64,000 bases of DNA from an uncultured Acidobacteriota bacterium (GCA_963714035.1 OY970224.1:1093240-1157239), one strand, 5' to 3'; counted from the first letter of the stretch, positions 1 through 43,500 are shown. Numbers and translations are program-made. Notes: generated from the letters alone by a model not told the origin.

Positions 1-192
1 GGGCAGGAGCAGAGCACCGTCGGAATGTTCGTCCTCGAGCCGGGCGGGAAGTTCGCGTCGCGCGTCCCCGTGAAGCTCGGGCGCGGATCGGTCAACGCGG
101 TCGAAGTGCTCGACGGCCTGAAGGCCGGCGATCAGGCGATTCTCTCGGACATGTCGAGATGGGACGGGTTCAACCGCGTCCGCCTCGAATGA
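1..192 (+). CDS. 3' end of a periplasmic adaptor / membrane-fusion protein (HlyD/MacA family), truncated by the window edge
   Basis: Frame 1 is open from base 1 to the TGA at 190-192. The tail ...GKFASRVPVKLGRGSVNAVEVLDGLKAGDQAILSD... resembles the C-terminus of MacA-type adaptors. It ends 11 nt before a MacB-type ATPase gene. Confidence 0.5.
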   Translation, partial: GQEQSTVGMFVLEPGGKFASRVPVKLGRGSVNAVEVLDGLKAGDQAILSDMSRWDGFNRVRLE

Positions 193-203: not shown

Positions 204-908
204 ATGACGGCACATCCGGACTCCCTGATTCATATGGAAGGCATCCGCAAGGTCTTCTACACGGACGAAGTGGAGACCCATGCGCTGTCGGAGATCCATC
301 TCGACATCCGCAAGGGTGAGTACGTCGCGATCGCCGGCCCCTCGGGATCGGGAAAGTCGACGCTGCTCGCGATCATGGGGCTCCTCGACACGCCCACGCA
401 CGGGAAGTACGTGTTGAACGCCAAGGCGGTGGAGGACATCGGCCCGTCCGAACGGGCGCGCATCCGCAACCGGGAGATCGGGTTCATCTTCCAGAGCTTC
501 AACCTGATCGGCGACCTGACGGTGTACGAGAACGTCGAGCTGCCCCTGACCTACCGCGGAATGTCGTCGGGGGAACGCAAGCTGCGGGTCCACGAGTCGC
601 TCGAACGGGTCGGAATGAGCCACCGCACGAAGCACTATCCCGCCCAGCTCTCCGGAGGCCAGCAGCAGCGCGTCGCGGTCGCGCGCGCCCTCGCCGGCTC
701 GCCTTCGATCCTGCTGGCCGACGAACCGACGGGAAACCTCGATTCCCGGAACGCCGAATCCGTCATGGAGCTCCTCCGCGAGCTCCACCGCGAGGGCGCC
801 ACGATCTGCACGGTGACGCACGACCCGCGGTTCTCCCGCCACGCCGAACGCACGATCCACGTCTTCGACGGTCGGATCGTGGAAGAAACGCTCGCCGCCG
901 AAGCGTAG
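204..908 (+). CDS. ABC transporter ATP-binding protein, MacB/LolD-type (ATPase 1 of the array)
   Basis: ATG at 204 follows GAAAGGAAGG. Walker A GPSGSGKST, ABC signature LSGGQQQRV, Walker B ILLADEPT and H-loop VTHD are present. The upstream ATG at 159 lies inside the preceding gene. Confidence 0.9.
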   Translation: MTAHPDSLIHMEGIRKVFYTDEVETHALSEIHLDIRKGEYVAIAGPSGSGKSTLLAIMGLLDTPTHGKYVLNAKAVEDIGPSERARIRNREIGFIFQSFNLIGDLTVYENVELPLTYRGMSSGERKLRVHESLERVGMSHRTKHYPAQLSGGQQQRVAVARALAGSPSILLADEPTGNLDSRNAESVMELLRELHREGATICTVTHDPRFSRHAERTIHVFDGRIVEETLAAEA

Positions 909-969: not shown

Positions 970-3426
970 ATGAACGGATTCCTGACCGACCTTCGGCAGG
1001 CCGCGCGCGCGCTCGTCCGACGCCCCGGATTCACCGCCGCGGCGGTCGCCGCGCTCGCGATCGGGATCGGGGCGACGACGGCCATCTTCTCGGTGGTTTA
1101 CGGCGTTCTTCTCCGGCCTCTTCCCTACCCGGGAGAAGACCGGCTCATCGACGTCGCGGAAGTCAACGCGCGGGGGCGCGCGACACGCGTGTCCGACGCG
1201 AACTTTCTCGATTTCCGCGACCGCAACCGCACGCTCGACGGCCTCGCCGAATACTCGGACGTCTCCTCGACCGCGGTCGCCGTGGGCGCCCGTTCGAGCG
1301 GCGAGGCGCTTCGGACGCCGGTCGCGGTCGTGTCCGCCCGGTTCTTCGACGTCCTCGGCATCGCTCCGTCGCGCGGAAGAACCTTCGTTCCCGACGAGCT
1401 CGTTCCCGGAGGCCGGGCAGCCGCCCTCGTCAGCACGGACTTCTGGCGGACGCATCTGGCCGCCACGGCCGATCCCGCTTCGGCGGTCCTTCGAATCGAC
1501 GGCGCCTCCGTCGCGGTCGTGGGCGTCCTCCCGCCGGGATTCCACTTCCCCGACGGCGCCGAAGTCTGGATTCCGCGGGAGCGTGCGCCGTGGCTCCCCA
1601 GCCGGACGGCGCACAACAACCGGCTCGTCGGCCGGATGAAGGCGGGCGTTCCCGTCGCGGCGGCGCGCGCGGACCTTTCGTCGATCGCCCGCGCCCTCGC
1701 GGCGGAGCTCGGCAAGGACACCGACATGGCGGACGCGGGGGTCACGCCGCTGCGCGAAACGATCGTCGGACGGACGCGTCCCGCCCTCCTCCTCCTGCTC
1801 GCGGCGGCCGCGGCGCTCTTCCTCGTCGGATGCGTCGACGTCGTCGCGCTGCTTCTCGCCCGCGCGGCTTCGCGGCGGCGGGAGATCGCGATCCGCCGCG
1901 CGCTCGGCGCCGGGCGCGCCGACCTGATCCGCACGTTCCTCGCCGAAGCGCTCGCGGTCTCGGTGCCCGGCGGCCTCCTCGGGATCGGGATCGCGGCGGC
2001 TCTCGTCGGCGCCGTCGCCCGTCTCGCCCCGCCGGGGCTCCCCCGGGTCGCGGAGATCGCGGTCGATGCGCCGGCGCTCGCGGCCGGGCTCTTCCTCGCG
2101 CTCGCCGCCGCGGGAGCACTCGCGGTCGCGACCGCGTGGGGGGAGTACGGCAGCCGGCTGGCCGACGTCCTCCGCGGCCACCAGACGACGGCGAACGTGC
2201 GCACGCGCCGCGCGCAGCGCGTCCTCTCCGTCGGGCAGCTGGCGGTCACGGCGGCGCTGCTGGCGGGAGTCTCGCTTCTCGGCCGCAGCCTGACGAAGCT
2301 TCTCGACGTTCCCCTCGGATTCCAGCCGGCACGCGTGCTGACGATGGACCTCGATTTTCCGGATGCGGGATCCGACGCGGATCGCCGGAAGCGGAAGTCG
2401 GAGATCGCGGAAGTTCTCGACCGGGTCGGGAGGCTTCCCGGCGTCGAGAAGGCGGGAGCGACCGATGCGCTGCCGATCGGCAGCGATGCGCCGGACGGCA
2501 TTTTCCTCCTCATGAGCCCCGGACAGGCCCTTCCCGCTCCCGCGGATTTCGAACGACTCTTCAAGGACCCGGCGCGGACGGGTTCGGCCGATTACGCGCT
2601 CGCGACCGGCGGGTATTTTCCGTCGATGGGCATCCCGCTCTTGCGGGGGCGGCTCTTCGACGGCCGCGACGTCGCGGACGCGCCCCACGCGGCGGTCATC
2701 AGCGAGACGCTCGCGAAGACCCGCTTTGCGGAGCGCGATCCGATCGGACAGGTCGTCGAGTTCGGGAACATGGACGGCGACGTCCGCGTGATGACGATCG
2801 TCGGCGTCGTCGGAGACGTCCGGGAGAGCCGGATCGACGCCCCTCCGGAGTCGATCATCTACGGCGATCTCGCCCAGCGGCAGAAGGGGTCGACGGTCAC
2901 GGTGACGATGCGCGTCGCCGGCGATCCGCTGGCGATCGCCGAAAGCGCCCGGCGAGCGGCTCGCGAAGTCGATCCGCAGGTCCCCGCGACGATCCGGACG
3001 ATGGACGACGTCATCGCGGCAGCCGTCGCGCCGCGCCGTGTGGGGATCCTGCTGCTCTCCGTCTTCAGCATCGCCGCCCTGGCCCTCGCCTGCACGGGAC
3101 TCGCCGGGATCACGGCGTATTCGATCGCGCAGCGACAGCGGGAAATGGGCATTCGCGCGGCTCTCGGCGCCCGGCCGGCCGGGCTCCTCGCGCTGCTCCT
3201 GTCCGAGCAGTCCCGCCTCGTCGGCGCCGGTGTGGCGGCCGGCATGGCGATCGCGGTCTTCCTCGGCGCCCTCGCGCGCGCCCTGCTCTTCGGCGTCACC
3301 GCGGCCGATCCGCTCTCGCTCGCCTCCGCCGCCGCCGTTCTCGCCGCCGCCGCGACCGTCGCGGTCCTGATCCCCTCGCTCCGGCTGCTTCGGCTCCCCG
3401 CGGCGGAAGCCCTCCGGCAGGAATGA
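970..3426 (+). CDS. ADOP-family permease 1 (duplicated MacB-periplasmic-domain + FtsX modules)
   Basis: 818 aa. N-terminus is MNGFLTDLRQAARALVRRPGFTAAAVAALAIGIGATTAIFSVV. There are two FtsX-like blocks, each with an R-R-R-E-I-A/G-I-R-x-A-L-GA motif. The C-terminus ends ...AEALRQE. Confidence 0.9.
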   Translation: MNGFLTDLRQAARALVRRPGFTAAAVAALAIGIGATTAIFSVVYGVLLRPLPYPGEDRLIDVAEVNARGRATRVSDANFLDFRDRNRTLDGLAEYSDVSSTAVAVGARSSGEALRTPVAVVSARFFDVLGIAPSRGRTFVPDELVPGGRAAALVSTDFWRTHLAATADPASAVLRIDGASVAVVGVLPPGFHFPDGAEVWIPRERAPWLPSRTAHNNRLVGRMKAGVPVAAARADLSSIARALAAELGKDTDMADAGVTPLRETIVGRTRPALLLLLAAAAALFLVGCVDVVALLLARAASRRREIAIRRALGAGRADLIRTFLAEALAVSVPGGLLGIGIAAALVGAVARLAPPGLPRVAEIAVDAPALAAGLFLALAAAGALAVATAWGEYGSRLADVLRGHQTTANVRTRRAQRVLSVGQLAVTAALLAGVSLLGRSLTKLLDVPLGFQPARVLTMDLDFPDAGSDADRRKRKSEIAEVLDRVGRLPGVEKAGATDALPIGSDAPDGIFLLMSPGQALPAPADFERLFKDPARTGSADYALATGGYFPSMGIPLLRGRLFDGRDVADAPHAAVISETLAKTRFAERDPIGQVVEFGNMDGDVRVMTIVGVVGDVRESRIDAPPESIIYGDLAQRQKGSTVTVTMRVAGDPLAIAESARRAAREVDPQVPATIRTMDDVIAAAVAPRRVGILLLSVFSIAALALACTGLAGITAYSIAQRQREMGIRAALGARPAGLLALLLSEQSRLVGAGVAAGMAIAVFLGALARALLFGVTAADPLSLASAAAVLAAAATVAVLIPSLRLLRLPAAEALRQE

Positions 3427-5849: not shown

Positions 5850-5859
5850 GAGGAGCACC

Positions 5860-8322
5860 ATGATCTCCGGCCTGCCGTCCGACATTCGCTACGCGTTCCG
5901 GTCCCTCCGCAAGTCTCCGGGATTCACGGCGGTCGCGATCGCGACTCTCGCCCTCGGGATCGGAGCGAACACGGCGATCTTCTCGGTCGTGCGCGGCGTG
6001 CTGCTGAAACCTTTGCCGTATCCGGACGCCGGTCGGATCGTCGCGCTGCGGACGGCGACCCGCCAGGGACGGCAGATGGGCGCCGCGAGCTTTCCCGACA
6101 TGACCGACTGGCGCTCGCGAAACACGGTCTTCGAAGAAGTCGGGGGCACCTACCCGATGGATCTCGCCGTGAGCGGCGGCACGCGTCCCGAACACGTCGA
6201 CGCCGCGGCCGTCACGGCCGGTCTCCTGCGCGTTCTCGGCGCGCGTCCCGCGGCCGGAAGGATCTTCGAGGAAGCCGACGACCGCGCCGGCGCGCGCGTC
6301 ATCGTCGCCAGCGACGGGTTCTGGAAAACGGTTCTCGGAGGGCGGCGCGACGCCGTCGGTTCGACCGTGAGGCTCAACGGGCGCGCCTTCACCGTGATCG
6401 GCGTCCTTCCGCCGGACTTCCGGATGCCGGTCGCGGGCTCCTCGGCGCAGATCTGGCTCTCCGCCGCGTTCGCCCACGAGTCGAACGACGGCTCCCCGGA
6501 GGCCGAACAGCGCGGCGCGCACTTCATCGACGTGTTCGCGAAACTCAAGCCCGGCGTCACCCTGGCAAGGGCCCAGGGCGAGATGATCGCGATCGGCGCC
6601 CGCCTGCAGAGGGAATACCCCGCCACGAACGCGAACATCGGCGTCCGCGTCGTGCCCGCGGCGGAGCCTCTCGTGAGCCGGGCGCGCCCCGCGCTGACGA
6701 TGCTCCTCGCGGCCGTCGGGCTCGTGCTGCTGATCGCCTGCGCGAACGCGGCGAACCTGGTCCTCGCCCGCGCCACCGCGCGCCGCGGCGAAATCACGAT
6801 CCGCGCCGCGATCGGCGCGAGCCGGGCCCGGATCGTCTCGCAGCTCCTCGCCGAGAGCACGATCCTCGCCGTCGCGGGAGGCGCGGCCGGAATCCTTCTC
6901 GCCGCGTGGGGAGTCCCCGCTCTCGTCGCCGCGTCCGCGGGACGCGTCCCCCGCTCCGCCGGGATCCGGATCGACGCCGGCGTCCTCCTCTTCACGCTCG
7001 CCGTCTCCGTCGCGACCGGGATCGTGTTCGGGCTCGCTCCGGCGCTCGCCTGCGCGCGGCCGAACCTTTCCGACGCGCTGCGGGAGCGCGGATCGGCGGC
7101 CGGCGGCGGCCGGCACCGCCTCCGGTCGGGGCTCGTCGTCGGTGAAGTCGCCGTGGCGTTCGTCCTCCTCGCGGGGGCGGGGCTCCTCCTCCGCAGCCTC
7201 GGACGCCTCGTCCATGCCGACCCCGGATTCGACTCGCGGCGCGTCTTCACGGCCCGTCTCGATCTTCCGGGACTCCGCTATCCCGATGCGGCGCGCGCCG
7301 CGGCGGCCTACGCCTCCGTCGTCGACGAGCTGGGACACGCTCCGGGAATCGTCTCGGCGGGCGCCCTGATGCCCCTCCCCCTCTCGGGATTCGAAGACAT
7401 GATCGGCTTCGCGCTCCCGGACGGGGGCGCGGCACTCCCCCCGCCGGACTCGGTGGGTCGGCCGTTTCCGTGGGAGTCCGCCTTCGCCGCCGCCGAGCCG
7501 GGATCGTTCCGGACGCTCGGCGTGCCGATCCGTTCCGGACGGGAGTTCCGGCGGAGCGACGACCTGCGCGCGGTCCCCGTCGCGATCGTGAACGAGACGC
7601 TCGCCCGGAAGTATTTCCCGGACGGCAAGGCCGTCGGCCGCCGGATCCAGCCGACGGTCTCCCCCGGCAGCGGCCCTCCTCCGATCCGCGAGATCGTCGG
7701 CGTCGCGGGAGACGTCAAGCTCGACGGACTCCGCGAGGAGGCCCGGCCGATGATCTACGTCCCGGAATCGCAGGTCGGCTTCAGCTCCATCTGGCTCGTG
7801 GTGAAGACGACGGGCAGCGACGCGACGGCGCTCGCGTCGATGCGGCGGCTCGTCGATCGGATCGATCCGGAGCTTCCCGTCTACGCGCCCCAGCCGCTCG
7901 CGCAGTACGTGAGCGGATCGTATTCGGCGGAGCGATTCACGTCTCTTCTCGTGACGATCTTCGCCGCCGTCGCGCTCGCGCTCACCGCGATCGGCCTCTT
8001 CGGCGTCGTGTCGTACACCGTCGCGCAGCGAACGCACGAAATCGGCGTGCGCGTGGCGATCGGCGCCCGGCCTGCCGAGGTCTTCCGGATGGTCGTCGGG
8101 TCCGGAATGCGTCTGGTCCTGGCCGGCGCGGCGGCGGGCCTGACCGGCGCGCTCCTCCTCGGCCGCGTCTTCGAAGGGTTCCTCTTCGGCGTCGGGCGTT
8201 CGGATCCGGCCACGCTCGCCTCGGTCGCCGCGCTCCTGGCCGCAATCGGTTTCCTGGCCTGCGCGCTCCCCGCCCGGCGCGCCGTCCGCGTGGATCCCGT
8301 GACGGCGCTGCGGGAGGAGTGA
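5860..8322 (+). CDS. ADOP-family permease 3
   Basis: 820 aa. N-terminus is MISGLPSDIRYAFRSLRKSPGFTAVAIATLALGIGANTAIFSVV. C-terminus is ARRAVRVDPVTALREE. A GAGAGGAG ribosome-binding site (RBS) lies upstream. Confidence 0.9.
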   Translation: MISGLPSDIRYAFRSLRKSPGFTAVAIATLALGIGANTAIFSVVRGVLLKPLPYPDAGRIVALRTATRQGRQMGAASFPDMTDWRSRNTVFEEVGGTYPMDLAVSGGTRPEHVDAAAVTAGLLRVLGARPAAGRIFEEADDRAGARVIVASDGFWKTVLGGRRDAVGSTVRLNGRAFTVIGVLPPDFRMPVAGSSAQIWLSAAFAHESNDGSPEAEQRGAHFIDVFAKLKPGVTLARAQGEMIAIGARLQREYPATNANIGVRVVPAAEPLVSRARPALTMLLAAVGLVLLIACANAANLVLARATARRGEITIRAAIGASRARIVSQLLAESTILAVAGGAAGILLAAWGVPALVAASAGRVPRSAGIRIDAGVLLFTLAVSVATGIVFGLAPALACARPNLSDALRERGSAAGGGRHRLRSGLVVGEVAVAFVLLAGAGLLLRSLGRLVHADPGFDSRRVFTARLDLPGLRYPDAARAAAAYASVVDELGHAPGIVSAGALMPLPLSGFEDMIGFALPDGGAALPPPDSVGRPFPWESAFAAAEPGSFRTLGVPIRSGREFRRSDDLRAVPVAIVNETLARKYFPDGKAVGRRIQPTVSPGSGPPPIREIVGVAGDVKLDGLREEARPMIYVPESQVGFSSIWLVVKTTGSDATALASMRRLVDRIDPELPVYAPQPLAQYVSGSYSAERFTSLLVTIFAAVALALTAIGLFGVVSYTVAQRTHEIGVRVAIGARPAEVFRMVVGSGMRLVLAGAAAGLTGALLLGRVFEGFLFGVGRSDPATLASVAALLAAIGFLACALPARRAVRVDPVTALREE

Positions 8323-8438
8323 GAGGCACCGATGAACAGGATTCGACGGGACTCCCCCCGCGCGCCGCGGGGAATCCGAGGAAATCCGGGCGCTCTCGCC
8401 GCCGCCGCAACCGTTGCCAGCGGAAGGAAGGAGAACTC

Positions 8439-10862
8439 ATGACCGGCCTGCTCCAGGACGTCCGGTTCGCTCTTCGCGGGCTCCGAAACCATCCCGGATT
8501 CACGTCGGTCGCGATCCTGACGCTCGCCCTCGCCGTCGGAAGTACGACCGCCGTGGTCTCGCTGACCCGCGCGGCGCTCGTGAAGTCTCTCCCCTACGCG
8601 GACCCGTCGGAGCTCGTCCATCTCTGGATGACGGACTCGAACGGAAAACACGAGCTCGCGTATCCGGACTATCTCGACCTCCGGCGCGAGACGCACGCCT
8701 TCGCGGACATGGGCGGATACGTCGGCGGACAGAAGGGAATTCTTCAGCTCTCCGGGGAATCCCTTCCGATCCGCGGGGCCGCCGCGTCCGCGAGCTTCTT
8801 TTCCACGCTGGGGATCGTCCCCGCGACCGGGCGAACATTCGAGCCGGCCGACGAGCTGCCGGGCGCGCCCCGATCCGTCGTTCTCGGATACCGCCTGTGG
8901 CGCGAGAGGTTCGCGGCGGATCCCTCGGTCGTGGGACAGGCGATCGTCCTCAACGGAATTCCGCGCCGGGTCGCGGGAGTCCTTCCCGCGGGTTTCAACT
9001 TCGCTCCGGCGCTCGACGCGGACCTCTGGGTGAATCTCCGGGTCGGCGAGCAGCAGATGCGGCGGAACCTCTGGTGGTTCAACGTCGTCGCGCGCCGGCG
9101 TCCGGGGCTCGATCCGAAGAAGGCGGCAGACGACGTCGCTCGCGTCTTCGGAAGCCTCTCCCGGCAATTCCCCGATTCGCACACGGGCACGGGAATCGAT
9201 GCGGTTCCGCTGGACGATCAGATCCTCGGGCCGGTCCGGCACATCCTGTCGGCGCTCCTCGGCGCGGTCGCGGCCGTCCTGCTCATCGCCTGCGCGAACA
9301 TCGCGGGCCTCCTGCTCGGGCGAGCGACGTCTCGCCGGAAGGAGATCGCGATCCGGGCCGCGCTCGGCGCTTCTTCGCGGCGCCTGGTTTCCCAGCTCCT
9401 CGCGGAGAGCTTCCTGCTCGCGGGCATCGGCGGCGCCGCCGGCGTCCTGCTGTCCGTGGCGCTCGTCCGGCTGCTGCTCGCCGGAATCCCGGAGGCCCAG
9501 GCCGCCGCCATGCCGTATCTGACGCACGCCCGGCTCGACGGCGTCGTCCTCCTGGCCGGCCTCGCCGTGACGGCCGCGGCCGGCCTCCTCTTCGGGCTCG
9601 CTCCTTCCCTCCAGATCGCGCGATCCGCGGGCAACGATCCTCTGCGGGAAACCCATTCCTCCGACGGGCGCCCCGCCCAGCGGATGCGCTCCGCGCTCGT
9701 CGTCGGAGAGATCGCCGCCGCCATCGTCCTCCTCGCGTCGGCGGGCGTCATGATCCGCAGCACGATCACGCTCCTCCGCGTCGATCCGGGCTTCGAGACG
9801 AAAAACCTCCTGACCATGCAGGTCGACCTGCCGTCGAATCCGCGGTACGAGGGAAGCGACCGGCTGACCGCATTCCACGCGGAGCTCCTCGCGCGCATTC
9901 GATCCGTCCCGGGCGTGCGGGGCGCCGGAACGGTCAGCGTGCTTCCTCTCTCGGGGGGAGGCGACACCGTGAATTTCGCGATCGAAGGGAGACCCGTCGT
10001 ACCCGGCCACGAGATCGAGGCGAACATCCGGACCATCTCGGCGGGTTACTTCCACGACATGGGAATCCCTCTGGTGGCGGGACGGTCCTTCGGCCCCGGG
10101 GATCGCGACGGCGGGCCGAAGACCGTAATCGTCAACCGCTCACTCGCGAGGCGGTTCTTCGGGACCGCGAGCCCCGTCGGCAGGAGAATCCGGTTCACTT
10201 TCAACGACCGGCAGCCGTACCGCGAGATCGTCGGCGTCGTCGGCGACGAGAACCAGAAGGGCCTCGACGCCGAACCCAACCCCGTCGTCTACGCGAGCTA
10301 CCTCCAGAGCCTCGAAGACTCGATGCGCGTCGTCGTCCGCACCGCCGGGAACCCGGAAGGGCTCGGCCGTTCGGTCAAGGCGGCGATCCAGTCGATCGAT
10401 CCGGCGATCATGATCGTGGACGTGTCCACGATGGGCCGGCTGATTTCCGACGCCCCCTCGACCTTCCTGCGCCGCTTCCCCGCCCTGCTGATCGGAGGCT
10501 TCGCGGCCGTGGCTCTCCTGCTGGCGGCGATCGGCCTCTACGGCATCATGGCGTTCGCCGTGGCGCGCCGCACCCGGGAGATCGGCATTCGGCTGGCGCT
10601 CGGCGCGGGGCGCCGGGACGTCATCGGGATGGTTCTCTCGGCGGGGAGCCGGCTCGTCGCCGGGGGGCTCGCGCTCGGTTTCGCCGGCGCGGTTGCGGCG
10701 ACGCGCGTGCTCTCTTCGATCGTCTTTCGCGTGCGGCCGCTCGATCCGGTCAGCCTGTTCGCCGTGTCGATCCTCCTGGCGGCGGTGGCGCTCCTCGCCT
10801 GCTGGCTTCCCGCGCGGCGGGCGGCGGCCGTCGACCCCATGACCGCGCTGCGCGACGAGTGA
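8439..10862 (+). CDS. ADOP-family permease 4
   Basis: ATG at 8439 follows GGAAGGAAGGAG. N-terminus is MTGLLQDVRFALRGLRNHPGFTSVAILTLALAVGSTTAVVSL. C-terminus is ARRAAAVDPMTALRDE. The upstream part of track ORF 7470-10862 overlaps permease 3 out of frame. Confidence 0.88.
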   Translation: MTGLLQDVRFALRGLRNHPGFTSVAILTLALAVGSTTAVVSLTRAALVKSLPYADPSELVHLWMTDSNGKHELAYPDYLDLRRETHAFADMGGYVGGQKGILQLSGESLPIRGAAASASFFSTLGIVPATGRTFEPADELPGAPRSVVLGYRLWRERFAADPSVVGQAIVLNGIPRRVAGVLPAGFNFAPALDADLWVNLRVGEQQMRRNLWWFNVVARRRPGLDPKKAADDVARVFGSLSRQFPDSHTGTGIDAVPLDDQILGPVRHILSALLGAVAAVLLIACANIAGLLLGRATSRRKEIAIRAALGASSRRLVSQLLAESFLLAGIGGAAGVLLSVALVRLLLAGIPEAQAAAMPYLTHARLDGVVLLAGLAVTAAAGLLFGLAPSLQIARSAGNDPLRETHSSDGRPAQRMRSALVVGEIAAAIVLLASAGVMIRSTITLLRVDPGFETKNLLTMQVDLPSNPRYEGSDRLTAFHAELLARIRSVPGVRGAGTVSVLPLSGGGDTVNFAIEGRPVVPGHEIEANIRTISAGYFHDMGIPLVAGRSFGPGDRDGGPKTVIVNRSLARRFFGTASPVGRRIRFTFNDRQPYREIVGVVGDENQKGLDAEPNPVVYASYLQSLEDSMRVVVRTAGNPEGLGRSVKAAIQSIDPAIMIVDVSTMGRLISDAPSTFLRRFPALLIGGFAAVALLLAAIGLYGIMAFAVARRTREIGIRLALGAGRRDVIGMVLSAGSRLVAGGLALGFAGAVAATRVLSSIVFRVRPLDPVSLFAVSILLAAVALLACWLPARRAAAVDPMTALRDE

Positions 10863-10871
10863 GATGAACCG

Positions 10872-13277: not shown

Positions 13278-13287
13278 AGGAGAGCCC

Positions 13288-15720: not shown

Positions 15721-15748
15721 GTGACGACGCCGTGAAAGGAAGCTGGCC

Positions 15749-18169: not shown

Positions 18170-18260
18170 TGGTCCGATTCTCCGTTCGCTCCGCGCCGGC
18201 AGTCCCCCCGTCGTCGCCGAGCCGAGCGGAAAGGAACGGGATGACCGCCAGGAGAAGAGC

Positions 18261-20675: not shown

Positions 20676-20685
20676 GGAGGGGACC

Positions 20686-23196: not shown

Positions 23197-23207
23197 CAGT
23201 GCTCGGG

Positions 23208-25634
23208 ATGCGCGGACTCTTCCGGGACGTCGTCGCGGCCGCCCGTTCGCTCCGCCGGGCTCCCGGAGTGACGCTCCTCGCGGTCGGCATCCTCGCGGTC
23301 GGCATCGGCGCCAACACCGCGATCTTCTCCGTCGTCGACGCCGTCCTGCTGCGCCGCTTGCCGTTTCCGGAAGCCGGCCGGATCGTCCGGATCTGGGCGA
23401 CGGCGCCGGAGCGCGGCCTCGATCTCGCGGAAGTCTCCGACGCGAGGTTCCTCGACGTCGCGTCCCGGAACGGCTCGTTCGCCGCGGTGGGAGCGTTCAC
23501 GCCCGACTCGGTGACGCTGACCGGCCCGGGAGCCGAGCCCGTCCGGATCGAGGCCGCGCGCGTGTCGCCCGGAGTTCTCGATGCCCTCGGCGTTCGGCCG
23601 GCGCTCGGCCGGAATTTCCTTCCCGCCGAGGACCAGCCGGGCGGAGCGGAGGCGGTCCTCCTGGGCGCGCGCCTCTGGCGCCGACGTTTCGACGCGGATC
23701 CGCGGGTCGTCGGTCGATCCCTCGACCTGGACGGCACCCCCCGCACCGTCGTCGGCGTCCTGCCCGAAGGGCTCGGCTTTCCCGACGACGCGACGGAGCT
23801 CTGGATCCCGCGGGTCGACGCGCCGAGCTTCCTGAACCGCGGCAACGTCGAGAGGGGATCGACCTACCTGAGCCTCGTCGCCCGTTTGAAGCCGGGGACG
23901 ACCGACGCGGGGGTCAAGGCCGATCTCGACCGCCTCGCCGGCAGCCAGCCGCGCGCGGGCTATCTGGACGAGGGGCTGCGCTACCGTTTTCTCCCTCTCG
24001 CCGAGGCGGCGACCCGCGACGCCCGTCCTTTGCTCCTCCTCCTGCTGGGCGCCGTCGCTCTCGTCCTCCTCATCGCGTGCGCCAACGTGACCAACCTCCT
24101 TCTCGTCCGGGCGATCGAGCGGCGCCGGGAGGTGGCTGTGCGGAAGGCGCTCGGGGCGAGCCGCGCCCGGCTCGTGCGCCAGTTCCTCGTGGAAGGCGCG
24201 CTCCTCTCGAGCCTCGCCGCCCTCCTCGGCCTCGTCCTCGCCCGCGCCGCGCTTCCACCGCTCGCCGCGCTCGCCGCGCGCCAGAAGCTCCCCCGCGCGG
24301 AAGCGATCGGCCTCGATCTCCGCGTCCTCGCGTTCACTTGCGCCGCGGCGCTGGCGACCGGCATCGTGTTCGGGCTCGTTCCCGCTTTCGAGGGCGCGCG
24401 CACCGACATCCGCGCCGCGCTCGCGGAAACCTCGCGGACCTCCCGGGGAACCGTCCGGAGGCGGCGCGGAAGAGGCTTTCTCGTCGTCGCGGAAGTCGCG
24501 CTCGCCGTCGTCCTGCTGACGGGCGCCGGGCTGCTTCTTCGCACGATCTTTCGCCTCGAGGCGGTCGATCCCGGCTTCCGCCGCGACCACGTGGTCGTCG
24601 CTTCGGTCGATCTGCCGCCGTCGCGATACGGGCGCCCGGAGGAGATCCGGGCGTTCTTCGAGCGGCTTCGGCAGAGCTTCGCCTCGCTCCCCGGCGTCGA
24701 CGCCGTCGGCGCCGCGCAGGCTCTTCCGCTGTCGGCGGATCGTCCCCAGACGCTCGTCGCGGCCGAGGGCGGACCGCTCCCTCCCCTTTCGGAGCGACCC
24801 ATCGTGTCGCTGGACACCGTGGCGTTCGACTACTTCCGCGCCCTCGGAATCCCCCGGGTCGCGGGGCGCACGTTCGGCGACGGCGACGATGCCGCCGCGC
24901 CGCTCCGGATCGTCGTGAACCGGAGCTTCGCGCGGCGGTTCTTCCCCGGCCGGGACGCGTTCGGGCGCCACGTCTTCGTCGGCCGCTCCCCGACCCCGGT
25001 CGAGATCATCGGCGTCGTCGGAGACGTCCGGAGCGACGGTCTCGACGCGGCGCCCCGGGAATCGTTCTACCTCTCGGCGCGCCAGCACACGGTCCCGTCG
25101 CTGCGGTTCGTTCTGCGAAGCGCCGTCCCCCCCTCCGTTCTCGGCCCGCTCGTCCGGGCGCGTCTCCGCGAGCTCGACCCGGACCAGCCCGTCGCCGATC
25201 TCCGATCGATGGACGACATCGTCGCGGATTCGATCGGGCCGAGGCGCCGGATCGGACTCCTTCTCGGCGCCTTCGCCGGGCTCGCTCTCGGCCTCGCGGC
25301 GATCGGGCTCTTCGCGGTGATGGCGTGCTCGGTGCGCCAGCGCTCGGCGGAGATCGGCATCCGGATCGCCCTGGGGGCGGAGCCCGGACGGATTCTCGCG
25401 GCGACCGTCGGGGAAGGCGTTCGGCTCGCGGCGATCGGCCTCGCGGCCGGGCTCGCCGCGGCAGCCGCGCTGAGCCGCTCGATCGCGAGCCTTCTCTTCC
25501 AGACGCGGCCGGTGGATCCCGCCACGGTCGCCGCGATTTCCGTTTTCCTGCTCGTCGTCGCGGCGGCGGCGAGCTGGATCCCCGCGCGTCGCGCCGCGCG
25601 TACCGACCCGATCCGGGTGCTGAGGGAGGAATGA
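23208..25634 (+). CDS. ADOP-family permease 10
   Basis: Start is the ATG at 23208, with an alternative GTG at 23199. N-terminus is MRGLFRDVVAAARSLRRAPGVTLLAVGILAVGIGANTAIFSVV. C-terminus is ARRAARTDPIRVLREE. The upstream part of track ORF 20889-25634 is an out-of-frame overlap with permease 9. Confidence 0.88.
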   Translation: MRGLFRDVVAAARSLRRAPGVTLLAVGILAVGIGANTAIFSVVDAVLLRRLPFPEAGRIVRIWATAPERGLDLAEVSDARFLDVASRNGSFAAVGAFTPDSVTLTGPGAEPVRIEAARVSPGVLDALGVRPALGRNFLPAEDQPGGAEAVLLGARLWRRRFDADPRVVGRSLDLDGTPRTVVGVLPEGLGFPDDATELWIPRVDAPSFLNRGNVERGSTYLSLVARLKPGTTDAGVKADLDRLAGSQPRAGYLDEGLRYRFLPLAEAATRDARPLLLLLLGAVALVLLIACANVTNLLLVRAIERRREVAVRKALGASRARLVRQFLVEGALLSSLAALLGLVLARAALPPLAALAARQKLPRAEAIGLDLRVLAFTCAAALATGIVFGLVPAFEGARTDIRAALAETSRTSRGTVRRRRGRGFLVVAEVALAVVLLTGAGLLLRTIFRLEAVDPGFRRDHVVVASVDLPPSRYGRPEEIRAFFERLRQSFASLPGVDAVGAAQALPLSADRPQTLVAAEGGPLPPLSERPIVSLDTVAFDYFRALGIPRVAGRTFGDGDDAAAPLRIVVNRSFARRFFPGRDAFGRHVFVGRSPTPVEIIGVVGDVRSDGLDAAPRESFYLSARQHTVPSLRFVLRSAVPPSVLGPLVRARLRELDPDQPVADLRSMDDIVADSIGPRRRIGLLLGAFAGLALGLAAIGLFAVMACSVRQRSAEIGIRIALGAEPGRILAATVGEGVRLAAIGLAAGLAAAAALSRSIASLLFQTRPVDPATVAAISVFLLVVAAAASWIPARRAARTDPIRVLREE

Positions 25635-28129
25635 TGTCTTCGACCGTCCAGGATTTCCGTCATGCCGCGCGACTCCTCCGCCGGAGTCCCGGTTTCGCCG
25701 CGGTTTCGATCGCCGTGCTCGCGCTCGGAATCGGAGGGAACGCCGCGATCTTCACCCTGGTGAACCGGGTGATGCTCCGTCCGCTGCCGTATCCGCAGCC
25801 GGAGCGCCTCATGGCGCTGTCTCTCACGGCGACCGGGCGCGGAATGAAGAACCTCGCCGCCGGCGACGAGCTCCCCTGGTCGTTCCCGAAATATCGGACG
25901 TTTCGCGCGATCGACCGCGACTTCGAGCGCGCCGCCGCGTTCGGCGATGACGCCGTCAATCTTTCCGGCGCCGGCGAGCCGGAACGCGTCCGGATCGAAT
26001 ACGCGAGCGGCGATTATTTTCCGATGCTCGGGATCCGTTCGGAGGCCGGCCGGCTCCTGTCGCCGGTGGACGACGCGCCCGGATCCGGTCCCGCCATCGT
26101 CCTCGGCGACGGCCTCGCGCGCCGCCGGTTCGGCTACCCGGCCGCGGCCGTCGGACGGATCGTCTCGCTCAACGGGATCCCGATGACCGTCGCCGGAGTC
26201 GGGCCGCCCGAATTCACGGGACTGACCGGCACGGCGGCGCTCTGGGTCCCGCTCTCGTTCGCCCCGCGCCTCATGTACGACTCGGCCCTCTCCGAGGCCG
26301 GGAATCACTGGCTCCAGGTCGTCGGAAGGCGGCGCACCGGCGTGACCGAGGCGGCGGCCCGCGCCGGTGTCGCGGCCGCCGGACGGCGGATCGCCGAGGC
26401 CTACCCGGTTCCCGCGCAGTTCGACGACGGCAGCGTCTGGGGCGCGAGGGCGGCTTCGCTCTCGGAAGCCCGGAAGGATCCGTGGGTGAGGCGGGCGCTG
26501 ACGGTCCTGCTCGCGGCGATCGGCGCGGTCCTTCTCCTCGCCTGCGGAAACCTTGCCGCTCTCCTGCTGGCTCGCGGCGCCGCCCGCCGCCACGAAATCG
26601 CCGTCCGGCTCTCGCTGGGAGCCACGCCGGGACGCATCCGGCGGCAGCTCCTCGCGGAGAGCATGCTGATCGCCGCCGCGGGAGGCGCGGCCGGGATCGA
26701 GATCGCCGTCTGGGGAGCGAAGGCGATCGTCGCGTTCGCCCCCTCGCGGCCCGGCTCGACCGGGCTCTCCGCCGGAGAGCTCGTCGATCTGTCCCGGGCC
26801 GTCGTCGACTTCCGGGTCGTCCTCTTCACGGCGCTGCTGGCGGCCGCGACCGGCGTCCTCTTCGGCCTCGTCCCGGCGTGGAAGGCTTCCCGCGGAGCGC
26901 CGGCGGAATCGCTTCGCGACTCCTCGGCGCGGGGATCGAGGCGCTTCGGCATGGGACGATCGGCGGTCGTCGCCGCGGAGATCGGCCTCGCGCTGACGCT
27001 CGTTCTCTCCGCGGGGCTCCTCGCGCGAAGCTTCGGGGAGATGTCGCGGGTTCCCCTCGGATTCGATCCGTCGCGCGTCATCGCGTTCTCGGTCAATCCG
27101 CCCGAGGCGGCCGTCCCCGAGACGCGGGTCGCGGCGTTCCATGCCGGGCTCCTCGACCGGATCGGGGCGATTCCCGGCGTTCGCTCGGCGGGGCTCGACC
27201 TCTGCGCGCCGCTCTCGGGAAGCTGCAACCGGACCGGCATCCGGGAGCTCGACGGGGTCCGGCACACGCCGGGAACGCTCCCCCCGATCGGCGTTCATTT
27301 CGTGAGCACGGAATACTTCTCGACCCTTTCGATCCCGATCCGTTCGGGACGGACGTTCACCGCGGCGGACCGCCCGGGCGCCCCGCGCGTCGTCGTCGTC
27401 AACGAGACCGCCGCCCGCCGGCTGTGGCCGGACGGCCGCGCGGTGGGCCGCCGGATCGGCCTCGGGCAGGGCGGCTTAAAGGACGGCGAGCAGGCGGAAG
27501 TCGTCGGCGTCGTGGCGGACGTTCGCTACGCGGGAATCGATGCGCCGGCGACGCTCGACGCCTACATGCCCGATCGGCAGTACGGTTTCGGATTCACGAC
27601 GCTCTTCGTGCGATCTTCCGGAGATCCTCGCGCGGCGATCCCGGCGCTCCGGGCGGCCGTACGCTCCGTCGATCCCACCCTCCCCATCGACGACGTCCGG
27701 ACGCTTTCCGCCCGCGTCGACGACGCCCTCTCTTCCGCGCGATTCGCGGCCGCGCTCCTCGGCGGTTTCGCGCTCTTCGCGATGGCGCTCGCCGCGCTCG
27801 GAATCTACGGGCTGCTGGCCCAGGCCGCCTCCGAGCGGTCGCGTGAAATCGGAATCCGGATCGCGCTCGGAGCGACGCGGCGCGCCGTGCTTTCGATGAT
27901 GCTCCGCTGGTCCGCGGCGATCACGGCCGCGGGGATCGCCGGAGGCGCCGTCCTCTTCGCCCTGGTCTCCCGGTCGCTCGCCGCCCTCCTGTTCGGGGTC
28001 CGCGCGGGCGACCCCGGCGTCGCCGCCGCCGTCGGCGGATTCGTCGCGGTCGTCGCGATCGGCGCGAGCCTCCTTCCCGCCGCGAGGGCGGCGAGAACCG
28101 ACCCCATCCGGGCTCTGAGGGAGGAATGA
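25631..28129 (+). CDS. ADOP-family permease 11
   Basis: The ATGATG at 25631 overlaps the upstream TGA (ATGA). N-terminus is MMSSTVQDFRHAARLLRRSPGFAAVSIAVLALGIGGNAAIFTL. C-terminus is ARAARTDPIRALREE. Confidence 0.88.
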   Translation: MMSSTVQDFRHAARLLRRSPGFAAVSIAVLALGIGGNAAIFTLVNRVMLRPLPYPQPERLMALSLTATGRGMKNLAAGDELPWSFPKYRTFRAIDRDFERAAAFGDDAVNLSGAGEPERVRIEYASGDYFPMLGIRSEAGRLLSPVDDAPGSGPAIVLGDGLARRRFGYPAAAVGRIVSLNGIPMTVAGVGPPEFTGLTGTAALWVPLSFAPRLMYDSALSEAGNHWLQVVGRRRTGVTEAAARAGVAAAGRRIAEAYPVPAQFDDGSVWGARAASLSEARKDPWVRRALTVLLAAIGAVLLLACGNLAALLLARGAARRHEIAVRLSLGATPGRIRRQLLAESMLIAAAGGAAGIEIAVWGAKAIVAFAPSRPGSTGLSAGELVDLSRAVVDFRVVLFTALLAAATGVLFGLVPAWKASRGAPAESLRDSSARGSRRFGMGRSAVVAAEIGLALTLVLSAGLLARSFGEMSRVPLGFDPSRVIAFSVNPPEAAVPETRVAAFHAGLLDRIGAIPGVRSAGLDLCAPLSGSCNRTGIRELDGVRHTPGTLPPIGVHFVSTEYFSTLSIPIRSGRTFTAADRPGAPRVVVVNETAARRLWPDGRAVGRRIGLGQGGLKDGEQAEVVGVVADVRYAGIDAPATLDAYMPDRQYGFGFTTLFVRSSGDPRAAIPALRAAVRSVDPTLPIDDVRTLSARVDDALSSARFAAALLGGFALFAMALAALGIYGLLAQAASERSREIGIRIALGATRRAVLSMMLRWSAAITAAGIAGGAVLFALVSRSLAALLFGVRAGDPGVAAAVGGFVAVVAIGASLLPAARAARTDPIRALREE

Positions 28130-28201
28130 CGGCGGACGGCGTGACGTTCCGGCGGGACCCGCGTATCCGGAATGGCCGGACTCGACGTCCGGTCCAGCAG
28201 G

Positions 28202-28463
28202 TTGCTGAAGAACCCCGCGGATCGCGCGCCAGTGGCTTGTGAACGAGATCAAGGCGCGAGGAGAGGACAGATGCCAGAGCGATCGGACTCGATGAGCAAC
28301 GCCGAGATCGTTCACCATGTACCGGCGCCCCAGCGGTTCGGGCGGCGCCGGGCCGTCTGCTTCGTTGCCGCTCCTCGACGATACTCCGGCATCGCCTGCG
28401 TCGCGGACGCCTTGCATCCGGCTCGGCGGCGCTCCGAACGCGACCCGTGCGGTTTTTCAGCAG
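28202..28463. repeat. Copy A of a two-copy structured element: conserved core closed by a 25-bp imperfect inverted repeat
   Basis: Left arm ttgctgaagaaccccgcggatcgcg (28202-28226) is complementary to right arm cgcgacccgtgcggtttttcagcag (28439-28463): 21 Watson-Crick pairs plus 1-2 wobbles, depending on strand, out of 25. The interior aligns to 47350-47563 at roughly three-quarters identity by eye, with at most a 1-nt length difference near the left end. Confidence 0.6.
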
Positions 28464-28479
28464 CCCGCCAGGAGGCCCG

Positions 28480-30921
28480 ATGAACGCCATTGCCCTCGAC
28501 GTCCGCTTCGCTCTCCGGCTCCTGCGCCGAAGCCCTGGCTTCGCGCTCGGCGTCGTTTCCGTTCTCGGTCTCGGAATCGCCGCCGCGACCGCGCTTTTCT
28601 CGATCGTCGATGCCGCGATCCTGCGGCCGCTCCCCTTTCCCGATCCCGGCCGCATCGTCGCCGTCGTCTCGGAAGATCGGGTCCACCATTCCCGCGCGGC
28701 CTCGTCGCCCCCCGATCTCGTCGATTTCCGGGCCTCCGTCCCGGCGCTTTCCGAAGTCGCGGCGACGACGCCCTGGAGCCCCGCCGCAACCGGTGCGGGA
28801 GAGCCGGAGCGTCTGCGGGGTCTCCTGGTCTCGGCGAACTTCTTCTCGCTGCTCGGCGTCCGCATGGCGCGCGGACGCGCGTTCGATCCCGCCGAGGAGA
28901 CGCCGGGGCGCGACCGCGTCGTCGTGATCGGCGACGCGCTCTGGCGCCGGAGGTTTGGCGCCGATCCCCGTCTCGTCGGCCGCGCGATCCTCTTGAACGG
29001 CGACCCCTACACCGTCGTCGGAATCGCTCCCGCCCGGTTCCGATGGGGACGGGCGTACGGCCGCAACGGCGTCTCCGACCTCTGGGCCCCTTTCGCCCTC
29101 ACGCCGGAGCGCGTCGCCGCGGGCGAGCGCGGAGACGAGTATCTCGACCTGATCGGCAGGCTCCGCCCCGGCGTCTCCTTCGCCGAAGCCCAGGGGCAGG
29201 TGGACGCCCTCGTTCGCCGGTTCCAGCGCGACTACCCCGCCCAGTTTCCTCCGGGAAGCCCGATCCGCACGGCGATCGTCCCCCTGCAGGGCGACCTCGT
29301 CGGCGACACGCGGACGCCTCTCTGGATCCTGTTCGGGGCGGTCGGGTTCCTTCTCCTGATCGCCTGCACGAATGTCGCGGGCCTGCTCCTCGCGCGAGCC
29401 GCGAAGCGGCGGGCCGAGATGGCGATTCGAGTCTCGCTCGGCGCCTCGAGGAGCCGGCTCTTCTCCCAGCTCCTCGCCGAGAGCGCCGTCGTCACGTTCC
29501 TGTCCGCCGCCGTGGGGGCCGTCGGCGGATGGGCCCTCCTCCGGCTCGCGGGAAGCCGCCTCCCGGCGGATTTTCCGGGCGTGTCGGCGCTCGCCGTCGA
29601 CCTTCGGGTCCTGGCGTTCGTCCTCGCGCTGGGCGCCGTGACGGCGATCGCGTTCGGCCTCGTGCCGCTCGTCGGCTCGTCCGTGTTCGACGTCCGCCGG
29701 CGCATCGACGAGGGTCGAACCGCCGGCGGGCGCGGGGAAGGACGGCTGCGCCGCGTTCTCGTCGCCGGCCAGCTCGGCCTCGCGGCGCTGCTCCTCGTCG
29801 GCGCCGCCCTTCTCGCGCTGAGCCTCGTCCGGATCCTGCGCGTCGATCCGGGATTCGACGCGCAGAACGTGATCACCGGCGAGCTGTCGCTTCCCCGGAG
29901 CCGCTATTCCGACCCCTTGCGGCGCGAAGCCTTCCGAAGAGCCGTGCTCGATCGTCTCGAGGCGGCGCCGGGCGTGATCGGGGCCGCCGCCGTCTCGGTC
30001 CTTCCCATGAGCGGCAACGCCAACAGCAGCTCCTTCGACGTCGAAGGGAGACCGGACCTCTCCGGGAACCGGGCGGCCCACGGGGAGAGCTGGGCGGCCA
30101 CGCCCGGATATTTCCCGACGATGCGGATCCCGCTCCGGCGCGGCCGTTTGTTCGCCGATTCCGACGGCCCGTCTTCGCTTCCGGTCGCGATCGTCGACGA
30201 GTCGCTGGCTCGCGCGTATTTCGGCGAGGCGGATCCGATCGGCCGCCGGATCGACTTCGAGGGGGACGCCAACGGCCGGAAGTGGCGGGTCGTCGTCGGC
30301 GTCGTCCGGACCGTCCGGGCGCGTTCGCTCGGCGACGCGCCGCGCCCGTCGTTCTACGTCCCTTTCTCGCAGTCCCACGAACGGGTGATGACGTTCGTCG
30401 CGCGGGTCCGGGGCAACGCCGCCGCGACCGCGTCGGCCCTTCGCGCCGCGGTCGCCGCCGCCGATCCCGACCAGCCCCTCGGCACGGTCGCTCCGCTCGA
30501 GGATCTCGCCTCGGAGTCCGTCTCCCAGCGACGCGTCGCGGCGGCGGCGATCGCCGCCTTCGCGGCCGCCGCGCTTCTCCTCGCGGTCGTCGGACTGTAC
30601 GGGGTCCTCGCGTACTCGGTGGCTCGCCGCAAACGGGAGATCGGGATCCGCATGGCGCTCGGCGCCGTTCCCTCCGCGATCGCCGCTCTCGTTCTGCGGG
30701 AGAGCGGCCGGGTGATCTCGGCCGGTCTCGCGGGCGGGCTGGCCGCCGCGTTTCTCGCGACGCGATTCCTGACGAGCCTCCTCTTCGGCGTGACGCCGCT
30801 CGATCCGCTCGCGTTCGGCGCCGTGGCGGCGATCCTCGCGGGGGCCGGCCTTCTCGCGAGCTTCCTGCCGGCCCGTCGGGCGGCCCGCATCGCTCCGATG
30901 GAGGCGCTGCGCGCGGAATAG
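28480..30921 (+). CDS. ADOP-family permease 12
   Basis: ATG at 28480 lies 5 nt after AGGAGG. N-terminus is MNAIALDVRFALRLLRRSPGFALGVVSVLGLGIAAATALFSIV. C-terminus is ARRAARIAPMEALRAE. The track start at 28447 lies inside the repeat arm. Confidence 0.88.
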   Translation: MNAIALDVRFALRLLRRSPGFALGVVSVLGLGIAAATALFSIVDAAILRPLPFPDPGRIVAVVSEDRVHHSRAASSPPDLVDFRASVPALSEVAATTPWSPAATGAGEPERLRGLLVSANFFSLLGVRMARGRAFDPAEETPGRDRVVVIGDALWRRRFGADPRLVGRAILLNGDPYTVVGIAPARFRWGRAYGRNGVSDLWAPFALTPERVAAGERGDEYLDLIGRLRPGVSFAEAQGQVDALVRRFQRDYPAQFPPGSPIRTAIVPLQGDLVGDTRTPLWILFGAVGFLLLIACTNVAGLLLARAAKRRAEMAIRVSLGASRSRLFSQLLAESAVVTFLSAAVGAVGGWALLRLAGSRLPADFPGVSALAVDLRVLAFVLALGAVTAIAFGLVPLVGSSVFDVRRRIDEGRTAGGRGEGRLRRVLVAGQLGLAALLLVGAALLALSLVRILRVDPGFDAQNVITGELSLPRSRYSDPLRREAFRRAVLDRLEAAPGVIGAAAVSVLPMSGNANSSSFDVEGRPDLSGNRAAHGESWAATPGYFPTMRIPLRRGRLFADSDGPSSLPVAIVDESLARAYFGEADPIGRRIDFEGDANGRKWRVVVGVVRTVRARSLGDAPRPSFYVPFSQSHERVMTFVARVRGNAAATASALRAAVAAADPDQPLGTVAPLEDLASESVSQRRVAAAAIAAFAAAALLLAVVGLYGVLAYSVARRKREIGIRMALGAVPSAIAALVLRESGRVISAGLAGGLAAAFLATRFLTSLLFGVTPLDPLAFGAVAAILAGAGLLASFLPARRAARIAPMEALRAE

Positions 30922-43498: not shown

Positions 43499-43500
43499 TC

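Follow-up and report, generated by a model that had tools for sequence, protein, structure and literature searches.

In a stretch of 64,000 nucleotides from an uncultured Acidobacteriota bacterium (GCA_963714035.1, OY970224.1:1093240-1157239; the whole stretch is called the window here), twelve intact genes of the ADOP family (Acidobacterial duplicated orphan permease) are arranged head to tail at positions 970-30921. They are preceded by the 3′ end of an adaptor gene and by an ATPase gene, and are followed by a second ATPase gene and the genes of a response regulator and a histidine kinase. We consider it probable that this locus encodes a MacAB-TolC-like pump of the type VII ABC (ATP-binding cassette; mechanotransmission) class under sigma-54 and two-component control, in which twelve alternative fused-dimer permeases share one adaptor and two ATPases.

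ADOP permeases belong to the largest paralogous families in Acidobacteriota, which are abundant soil bacteria, and the ADOP observation reportedly originates in Ward et al. 2009. Most of these permeases have no ATPase gene nearby, which raises the question of how they are powered. The locus type described in this study joins up to 14 ADOPs with all other parts of a MacAB-TolC-like pump and with its own regulator, and it yields testable hypotheses on shared hub ATPases, on the use of one adaptor by many permeases and on induction by sigma-54 and a two-component system.

Twelve intact genes in one array

By following the frames that bear the conserved N-terminal motif, we detected twelve consecutive open reading frames (ORFs) without internal stop on the plus strand, encoding proteins of 801-836 amino acids (aa). 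The G+C content of the window is ~70%, so that long spurious ORFs are common. A hidden Markov model (HMM) made from the twelve ADOPs matches only these twelve ORFs across the 64-kb window, and the gene count, strand and lengths given in the initial annotation are confirmed. G04 corresponds to the reading frame stopping at 10862 and not to the overlapping ORF stopping at 10867. Within the array the intergenic spacing is -4 to 28 nt, with the exception of 91 nt upstream of G08, 116 nt upstream of G04 and 350 nt upstream of G12. Over the full length, the twelve proteins are 30-43% identical to each other in an all-vs-all comparison. These values characterize old paralogues, for which repeat collapse, expansion or mis-joining is impossible.

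A genome scan with G01 delivered 80 Acidobacteriota loci of ~22 kb each. The genes of the array are listed below with their score against the family model TIGR03434 and their orthologues, where L numbers designate related loci.

970-3426, plus strand: ADOP G01, 818 aa, 685 bits; most divergent C-terminus of the twelve; orthologues 88% (L086), 77% (L085), 73% (L001) and 71% (L087) identical
3423-5849, plus strand: ADOP G02, 808 aa, 649 bits; start overlaps the stop of G01 (ATGA); orthologues 81% (L086) and 74% (L087)
5860-8322, plus strand: ADOP G03, 820 aa, 901 bits; orthologues 72-79%
8439-10862, plus strand: ADOP G04, 807 aa, 886 bits; orthologues 79% (L086) and ~68% (L001)
10872-13277, plus strand: ADOP G05, 801 aa, 842 bits; orthologues 71-80%
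13288-15720, plus strand: ADOP G06, 810 aa, 852 bits; one orthologue, 65% (L081/L085)
15749-18169, plus strand: ADOP G07, 806 aa, 928 bits; nearest relatives only 53-55%
18261-20675, plus strand: ADOP G08, 804 aa, 958 bits; orthologues 69-85%; copy used for the structure model
20686-23196, plus strand: ADOP G09, 836 aa, 823 bits; orthologues 72-75%, directly downstream of the G08 orthologue in L081 and L083
23208-25634, plus strand: ADOP G10, 808 aa, 876 bits; one orthologue, 70% (L083)
25631-28129, plus strand: ADOP G11, 832 aa, 809 bits; start overlaps the stop of G10; one orthologue, 58% (L081)
28480-30921, plus strand: ADOP G12, 813 aa, 880 bits; one orthologue, 59%, directly upstream of the ATPase-2 orthologue in L084

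Family membership and predicted fold

The NCBIfam model TIGR03434 ('ADOP family duplicated permease') comprises 803 profile positions and has a curated cut-off of 622.3 bits. All twelve proteins pass it with 649-958 bits and cover the profile from positions 1-3 to position 803. Each of them contains two PF12704 (MacB_PCD) and two PF02687 (FtsX) domains. With these three models, the earlier assignment to the ADOP family holds for 12/12 proteins, and NCBI names one orthologue 'ADOP family duplicated permease' as well.

The sequence motifs noted in the initial annotation are likewise present. The N-terminal motif D-[VLIF]-R-x-[AG]-x-R-x-L-R-R-x-P-G was found by a regular expression in eleven of the twelve proteins, with a near variant in G09, and the C-terminal motif PARRAxRxDPxxALRxE also occurs in eleven, G01 being divergent. 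The N-terminal half carries R-x-x-E-I-A-[IV]-R, consistently after transmembrane helix (TM) 2, and the C-terminal half carries R-T-R-E-I-G-[IV]-R after TM6. On their cytoplasmic faces, the two halves are thus each conserved but differ from one another.

An AlphaFold2 model of G08, calculated from an 81-sequence alignment (pLDDT 86.9, pTM 0.79), contains eight TM helices in two repeats, each composed of one TM, a periplasmic α/β domain and three TMs. In the first half the helices comprise residues 20-49, 270-301, 303-311 (a short cytoplasmic helix after TM2), 316-352 and 367-394. The pattern repeats in the second half, with a short cytoplasmic helix likewise after TM6, and the halves are connected by a short cytoplasmic linker of low confidence (residues ~395-410). 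The hydropathy of the ADOP sequences agrees with the model in giving eight hydrophobic segments. The features of the type VII ABC permease fold are all found in the model, namely the 4-TM FtsX fold, the periplasmic domain between TM1 and TM2 and the coupling helix between TM2 and TM3.

In a Foldseek search of the PDB with this model, the top match was Escherichia coli YbbP (9ge6), aligned over the full length with an E value of 1e-20. It was followed by half-length matches to MacB, Spr0694-0695, LolC/E, YtrF, BceB and HrtB, and isolated MacB periplasmic domains were matched as well (3ftj, TMt 0.69). By sequence, the nearest solved structures in a phmmer search were MacB proteins (5lil, E value 5e-21).

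Conservation among the twelve proteins is unevenly distributed. The mean pairwise identity is 0.58-0.59 for TM2 and the following cytoplasmic loop, 0.46-0.53 for TM6 and its loop and ~0.5 for both the N-terminal helix with TM1 and the C-terminus. The periplasmic domains, mostly at 0.19-0.40, are the least conserved parts.

Adaptor and ATPase genes flanking the array

Directly upstream and downstream of the array, the following genes were found:

1-192, plus strand: 3′ end of a gene for a HlyD/MacA-type periplasmic adaptor (membrane fusion protein), last 63 codons and stop; the window begins downstream of the operon promoter and of the remainder of the gene
204-908, plus strand: ABC ATPase-1, MacB/LolD/DarD-like, 234 aa; PF00005 116 bits, DarD 254 bits, MacB nucleotide-binding domain (NBD) 233 bits
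30954-31616, plus strand: ABC ATPase-2, 220 aa; PF00005 108 bits, DarD 246 bits

The initial annotation had placed the array behind a MacA-like adaptor and between two ATPase genes, and this is correct, the adaptor being present as its last 63 codons only. Its frame-1 translation (GQEQSTVGMF...SRWDGFNRVRLE*) matches the C-terminus of a 415-aa HlyD-family protein (L086:3890-5137) in all residues but one, and it is also close to a protein (L001:7995-9242) that matches Pfam HlyD_3 and HlyD_D23. The adaptor expected of a tripartite pump is represented in the window by its C-terminus. Full adaptor genes were found in four relatives (L001, L085, L086, L087), and 11 more loci have orthologues that are 50-57% identical. 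For ATPase-1, an alternative ATG at 159 would give a protein of 249 aa; the orthologues in relatives are called with 234 aa and with the same 11-nt gap after the adaptor gene.

The two ATPases are 42% identical and represent distinct lineages. Walker A, Q-loop, LSGGQ, Walker B and H-loop are intact in both sequences. The best models for both are DarD, MacB-NBD and LolD, with every score under the equivalog cut-off. Every ATPase in the collected loci sorts either into the ATPase-1 lineage (70-97% identical to that of the window) or into the ATPase-2 lineage (62-76%). Whenever a locus has two ATPases, each lineage contributes one, with ATPase-1 located upstream and ATPase-2 at the tail of the array, adjoining the regulator pair; the G01-like ADOP in these loci is only 41-48% identical to G01, except in L001 (73%). 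Judged from these comparisons, the two ATPase lineages are far more conserved than the permeases and appear to behave as conserved hubs. Such a pattern would fit the docking of many permeases to the same ATPases. It also allows, without showing it, an ATPase-1/ATPase-2 heterodimer that would match the two permease halves.

According to the TIGRFAMs text, ADOP genes essentially never adjoin ATPase genes, which is a descriptive trait of the family name and not part of the HMM definition. The ADOPs of the window do not have this 'orphan' trait, since two ATPase genes flank the array. The earlier statement that these copies are not orphans is supported by this gene context, with the adaptor fragment and ATPase-1 upstream and ATPase-2 downstream, and the arrangement recurs in many Acidobacteriota loci. 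A MacB/LolD-type ATPase gene within 10 kb was found in 18 of the 80 surveyed ADOP loci and in none of the other 62.

Conserved backbone and turnover in related loci

The closest named homologues are annotated as 'Thermoanaerobaculia bacterium' (Acidobacteriota), and the nearest species-representative genome is the long-read metagenome-assembled genome (MAG) MFD05513.bin.1.255 (L001). At least four full ADOPs are present in 16 of the 80 loci, and L045 is filled end to end with nine ADOPs. The full layout in relatives starts with a Lon gene on the minus strand, followed by the HlyD adaptor, ATPase-1 and the ADOPs. Long arrays of this type were found on JGI contig Ga0618256_0146757 (L085 and L081), with adaptor, ATPase-1 and at least 14 consecutive ADOPs; on NCBI DASTIQ010000303.1 (L087 and L083), where Lon, adaptor and ATPase-1 precede at least 12 ADOPs that extend to the contig end; and in L084, with at least 10 ADOPs and then the ATPase-2 orthologue. 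In L086, Lon, adaptor and ATPase-1 are followed by the orthologues of G01-G04 in order and then by a non-orthologous member.

Orthologues of G01-G06 and G08-G12 are 57-88% identical to the genes of the window, and their relative order is mostly kept across the relatives. Interspersed between them are members lacking a counterpart in the window (35-44% identity). The array thus shows a birth-and-death pattern on a conserved backbone.

The ratio of nonsynonymous to synonymous substitution rates (dN/dS, NG86 method) is 0.08-0.29 in 17 orthologue pairs, with dS values of 0.5-1.2, near saturation. Together with the intact frames of all twelve genes, these ratios support the earlier statement that the array contains no pseudogenes. 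In most pairs, dN/dS is slightly higher in the periplasmic domains than in the membrane and cytoplasmic core (0.17 vs 0.08 for G01), and none is near 1. Positive selection on the periplasmic domains is unsupported by this coarse estimate, in which all values are purifying and dS is close to saturation. The initial annotation had argued for selection on diversity. Only a part of this idea stands: conservation among the paralogues is lowest in the periplasmic domains, but the ratios there are only modestly higher, all purifying, and give no positive selection at the domain level.

Long tandem arrays of paralogues are classic sites of assembly errors, and in L001 (9971-22228) frameshifts interrupt several ADOP genes as well as the Lon gene upstream of them. 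The orthologues of these genes are intact in other assemblies and the frameshifts are restricted to the L001 assembly, where they look like sequencing or assembly error rather than pseudogenisation. We regard the explanation of the array as an assembly artefact or as a decaying pile of redundant genes as effectively refuted: the copies are too divergent, at 30-43% identity, and all match the HMM over the full length; arrays of at least 10, 12 and 14 copies, whose orthologues keep their relative order, are present in three assemblies obtained independently from other samples; and dN/dS is low throughout. The finding of the same locus type in related soil bacteria indicates that the array is real and under selection.

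The order at the tail of the window, with an ATPase or ADOP gene, then the sigma-54 regulator and then the kinase, is repeated in nine loci. A TolC-type OEP gene (PF02321) is located between array and regulator in three loci, L003, L008 and L013. In its place, L007 (12369-13508) and L018 (12465-13484) have a DUF4097 ('toastrack') gene between the last ADOP and the regulator. A PadR-like ORF upstream of singleton ADOPs, an association reportedly noted in TIGRFAMs, was obvious only in L024 with a crude ORF search and was not used as evidence.

The gene content of these loci also bears on the question whether solutes are expelled at all. The ADOPs could be non-efflux type VII ABC machines, performing extraction in the manner of YbbAP or LolCDE or activation in the manner of FtsEX, without a duct formed by adaptor and TolC. 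This would agree with the best full-length structural match, YbbP, an extractor of hydrophobic compounds for a periplasmic hydrolase, with the match to LolC/E, with the window locus being without a TolC-type gene and with the many ADOPs elsewhere that have no ATPase or adaptor nearby. However, the first gene of the operon encodes a HlyD-family adaptor in the relatives of the window and in 11 other loci, the TolC-type OEP gene lies within the syntenic locus in the three cases named above, and a TesA-, LolA- or EnvC-like partner gene was not seen among the annotated genes of the loci. We therefore consider a non-efflux function to be improbable.

Regulation and transcription

Downstream of ATPase-2 the window contains a regulator pair:

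31819-33177, plus strand: NtrC-type response regulator (sigma-54 enhancer-binding protein) with REC (PF00072), AAA+ Sigma54_activat (PF00158, 210 bits) and HTH_8 (PF02954)
33197-34534, plus strand: histidine kinase with two N-terminal TM helices, PAS (PAS_4/PAS_8), H-box and HATPase_c (PF02518)

The regulator has a GAFTDA loop instead of the canonical sigma-54-contact loop GAFTGA. This variant recurs in all regulator orthologues of nine loci (L002, L003, L005, L007, L008, L009, L013, L018 and L030), which are 61-68% identical, and in nine loci the regulator gene is followed by a kinase orthologue. In the kinase, the hydropathy peaks lie at residues ~10-33 and ~37-58. The intervening loop of ~8 residues corresponds to an intramembrane-sensing topology.

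This topology is reminiscent of Bce-type 'flux sensing', in which the permeases would mainly be sensors or co-sensors for the adjacent two-component system. Lacking its own sensor outside the cytoplasm, the kinase would then read the activity of one or more ADOPs and the array would broaden the range of detected signals or toxic compounds, while detoxification might still be the output. The strict synteny of the regulator-kinase pair with the ADOP/ATPase array in nine other loci is in agreement with such a role, as is the structural match to BceB, for which solved complexes of BceAB with BceS are available (8g3a, 8s5g). However, the cytoplasmic PAS domain of the kinase could sense alone, the regulator is a sigma-54 activator and not OmpR-type like BceR, and an ADOP has eight TMs and two periplasmic domains, compared to ten and one in BceB. 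The adaptor, and the TolC-type gene in relatives, point to export as the primary activity. A mainly sensory function of the array is thus unlikely in our opinion.

Since the operon head, consisting of the adaptor start and the promoter, is outside the window, promoter evidence was taken from relatives. Eight of nine operon heads contain the element GG-N8-TTGC in the 70 nt that precede the start codon of the adaptor gene, at a chance expectation of 2.2% per head (binomial P ~5e-13, or ~3e-8 with related loci grouped). This -24/-12 element sits 20-45 nt upstream of the start codon. L003 has a perfect match (TGGCACGACGCTTGC), and L008, L013, L011, L023, L036, L060 and L068 have variants that keep GG-N8-TTGC. 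In the three Thermoanaerobaculia-like heads, the sequence is TGGCAC-N5-TTGT (L086, L087) or TTGA (L001). Further upstream, ~130-150 nt before the start codon, a dyad TGTCC-N6-GGAC/GGGA was detected in 10 of 11 heads, compared to a background of 0.45 half-sites per 300 nt, often with GCGGACA ~30 nt downstream. Binding of an enhancer-binding protein is expected at such a position, and the dyad is a candidate site for the regulator.

Within the window itself, the sigma-54 consensus gave 17 matches at up to two mismatches, compared to 24.5 expected, with none in the intergenic gaps of the array. As the total is below chance and the gaps are free of matches, there is no evidence of internal sigma-54 promoters. 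A sigma-70 promoter scan over positions 1-32000 delivered no promoter-like sites. A scan for intrinsic terminators over the same range found terminator-like sites only within coding sequence, at chance frequency, and none in intergenic gaps. The tiny or overlapping gaps and the lack of terminator- or sigma-70-like sites in them lend some weak support to a single long transcription unit, which is plausible.

Proposed mechanism

In the proposed pump, each ADOP is a covalently fused pseudo-dimer of two directly joined MacB-type modules, with four TMs and one periplasmic domain each and eight TMs in total. By analogy with LolCDE and YbbA2P, it would bind two nucleotide-binding subunits. Because the locus supplies only one adaptor and two conserved ATPase lineages, the permeases most likely share them. 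The common ATPases could dock to the conserved cytoplasmic elements, which are the N- and C-terminal helices and the coupling helices following TM2 and TM6, and the divergent periplasmic domains may give each paralogue a different substrate or partner for efflux. Transcription of the unit would start at a sigma-54 (-24/-12) promoter preceding the adaptor gene, as predicted for the relatives, and this promoter is presumably activated by the NtrC-type regulator together with the two-TM kinase encoded at the 3′ end of the unit.

Several observations weigh against this proposal. A gene for an outer-membrane factor was not found in the window locus, and the 62 G01-like loci without an ATPase gene within 10 kb demonstrate that ADOPs can exist without an adjacent ATPase. 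Low conservation of extracytoplasmic domains is common across many transporter families and not specific to substrate diversification. With regard to regulation, the position of the operon head means that sigma-54 control is deduced from relatives with 71-88% identical orthologues, the -12 element of the closest of these is TTGT or TTGA and not TTGC, and the regulator deviates from GAFTGA. Finally, the gaps of 91, 116 and 350 nt could hold internal promoters.

If the sharing of adaptor and ATPases applies, the locus would represent an unusual modular efflux design, relevant to the ways in which soil bacteria withstand chemically diverse antibiotics or compounds acting on the envelope. A more far-reaching version, which we regard as rather doubtful, would be a combinatorial envelope machine, consisting of one adaptor, a heterodimeric ATPase pair matching the two non-identical permease halves, and 12-14 interchangeable permeases subject to gene birth and death, transcribed from one sigma-54 promoter. 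Its kinase would sense via the permeases, and the same hub ATPases would energise the scattered orphan ADOPs. Such an energising of scattered ADOPs without own ATPase would explain the orphaned look of the family.

The gap upstream of G12 and other genes of the window

The 350-nt gap upstream of G12, the only long gap of the array, contains a repeated element at 28224-28441 with a second copy at 47347-47566. The repeat is a 221-nt stretch, 74% identical to the copy 19 kb away, and its core of ~96 nt is 78% identical to L021 2716-2810 from an unrelated Acidobacteria MAG. The RNA fold z-score of the gap is -2.2, and a scan of the whole window at the Rfam gathering threshold revealed no family. 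It may represent a small RNA, a repeat with regulatory function or a MITE-like element. A search of the gap for a relic gene found no credible remnant of an ADOP, ATPase or kinase (best tblastn E value 3e-4, on the opposite strand).

The remaining genes of the window are housekeeping or unrelated ones, encoding PLD, ArgS, MCP, an ECF sigma factor, ATP synthase subunit a, nuo gene products and an amidase. ArgS (36623-38761, 712 aa) aligns to arginine-tRNA ligase models in several discrete segments, leaving a gap at residues ~481-508, possibly an insertion relative to the models. Long ORFs without a Pfam or NCBIfam match are located at 42468-43631 (minus strand), 39409-40305 (plus), 46489-47481 (minus) and 47632-49275 (plus); given the high G+C content, some of them may not be genes. 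The region of 46.5-49 kb is also the site of the second copy of the repeated element.

Comparison with known systems

Large ADOP copy numbers have been described in Dyadobacter (PMC11573002). In Psychroflexus torquis, a highly translated 42-kb cluster on genomic island 43 comprises 8-10 ADOP paralogues next to ATP-binding transporter genes (PMC3914696). The initial annotation was not aware of a functional description of an array of this kind; the report of such a cluster lowers the novelty of the array. Both systems have the TIGR03434 family with two MacB_PCD and two FtsX domains, large paralogous sets and ATP-binding transporter genes alongside. In contrast to the P. torquis cluster, which lies on a genomic island with transposases, the array of the window has twelve copies (at least 14 in relatives), strictly head to tail, at a conserved chromosomal position with Lon upstream and the regulator pair downstream. 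It is further distinguished by the HlyD adaptor, the two conserved ATPase lineages and the sigma-54 two-component system. In the searchable literature we found neither the conserved operon architecture (sigma-54 promoter, adaptor, ATPase-1, a variable number of ADOPs, ATPase-2, OEP in some loci, GAFTDA regulator and intramembrane-type kinase) nor the two hub-like ATPase lineages nor the evolution of the array by turnover on a backbone.

The darobactin exporter DarBCD, in which DarC is the adaptor, resembles the locus in its ATPase, as DarD (NF038007) is the best NCBIfam model for both ATPases (254 and 246 bits). Several ADOPs weakly match the permease model DarB (NF038008, ~777 positions). However, all scores with Dar models are far below the curated cut-offs of 375 and 700 bits, and neither genes for RiPPs (ribosomally synthesized and post-translationally modified peptides) nor further biosynthetic genes were noticed in the window.

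BceAB-BceRS (PDB 7tcg, 8g3a) likewise combines an FtsX-family permease and a separate ATPase with an adjacent two-component system, whose two-TM kinase has almost no external loop. It differs in the ten TMs and the one extracellular domain of BceB and in the OmpR-type BceR with sigma-70 promoters, as opposed to the sigma-54 activator and the PAS-bearing kinase of the window, so that only the kinase topology is Bce-like.

In the YbbAP structure, one copy of the type VII permease YbbP binds two YbbA ATPases via coupling helices that follow TM2 and TM8 (PMC12646458). Like the ADOPs, E. coli YbbP in YbbAP(-TesA) (PDB 9ge6-9ge8) is a pseudo-symmetric single chain of ~800 aa that contains two periplasmic domains and works with a separate ATPase. 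YbbP has ten TMs because an extra pair, TM5/6, links its halves; this pair is absent from the ADOP model with its eight TMs, and the sequence identity is 13%. YbbAP works with the hydrolase TesA, without adaptor or TolC, and its permease is encoded by a single gene, whereas the ADOPs form an array.

MacAB-TolC (PDB 5nik, 5lil, 5gko) shares with the locus the FtsX-type 4-TM module, the Porter/Sabre periplasmic domain between TM1 and TM2, the HlyD-family adaptor gene, the MacB/LolD-like ATPase and, in some syntenic loci, the TolC-type gene. MacB is a homodimer with an NBD fused to each 4-TM half, whereas in the ADOPs the halves are fused to each other and the NBDs are encoded by separate genes. 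Furthermore, MacAB-TolC has one permease, compared to the twelve alternative permeases that the array would provide.

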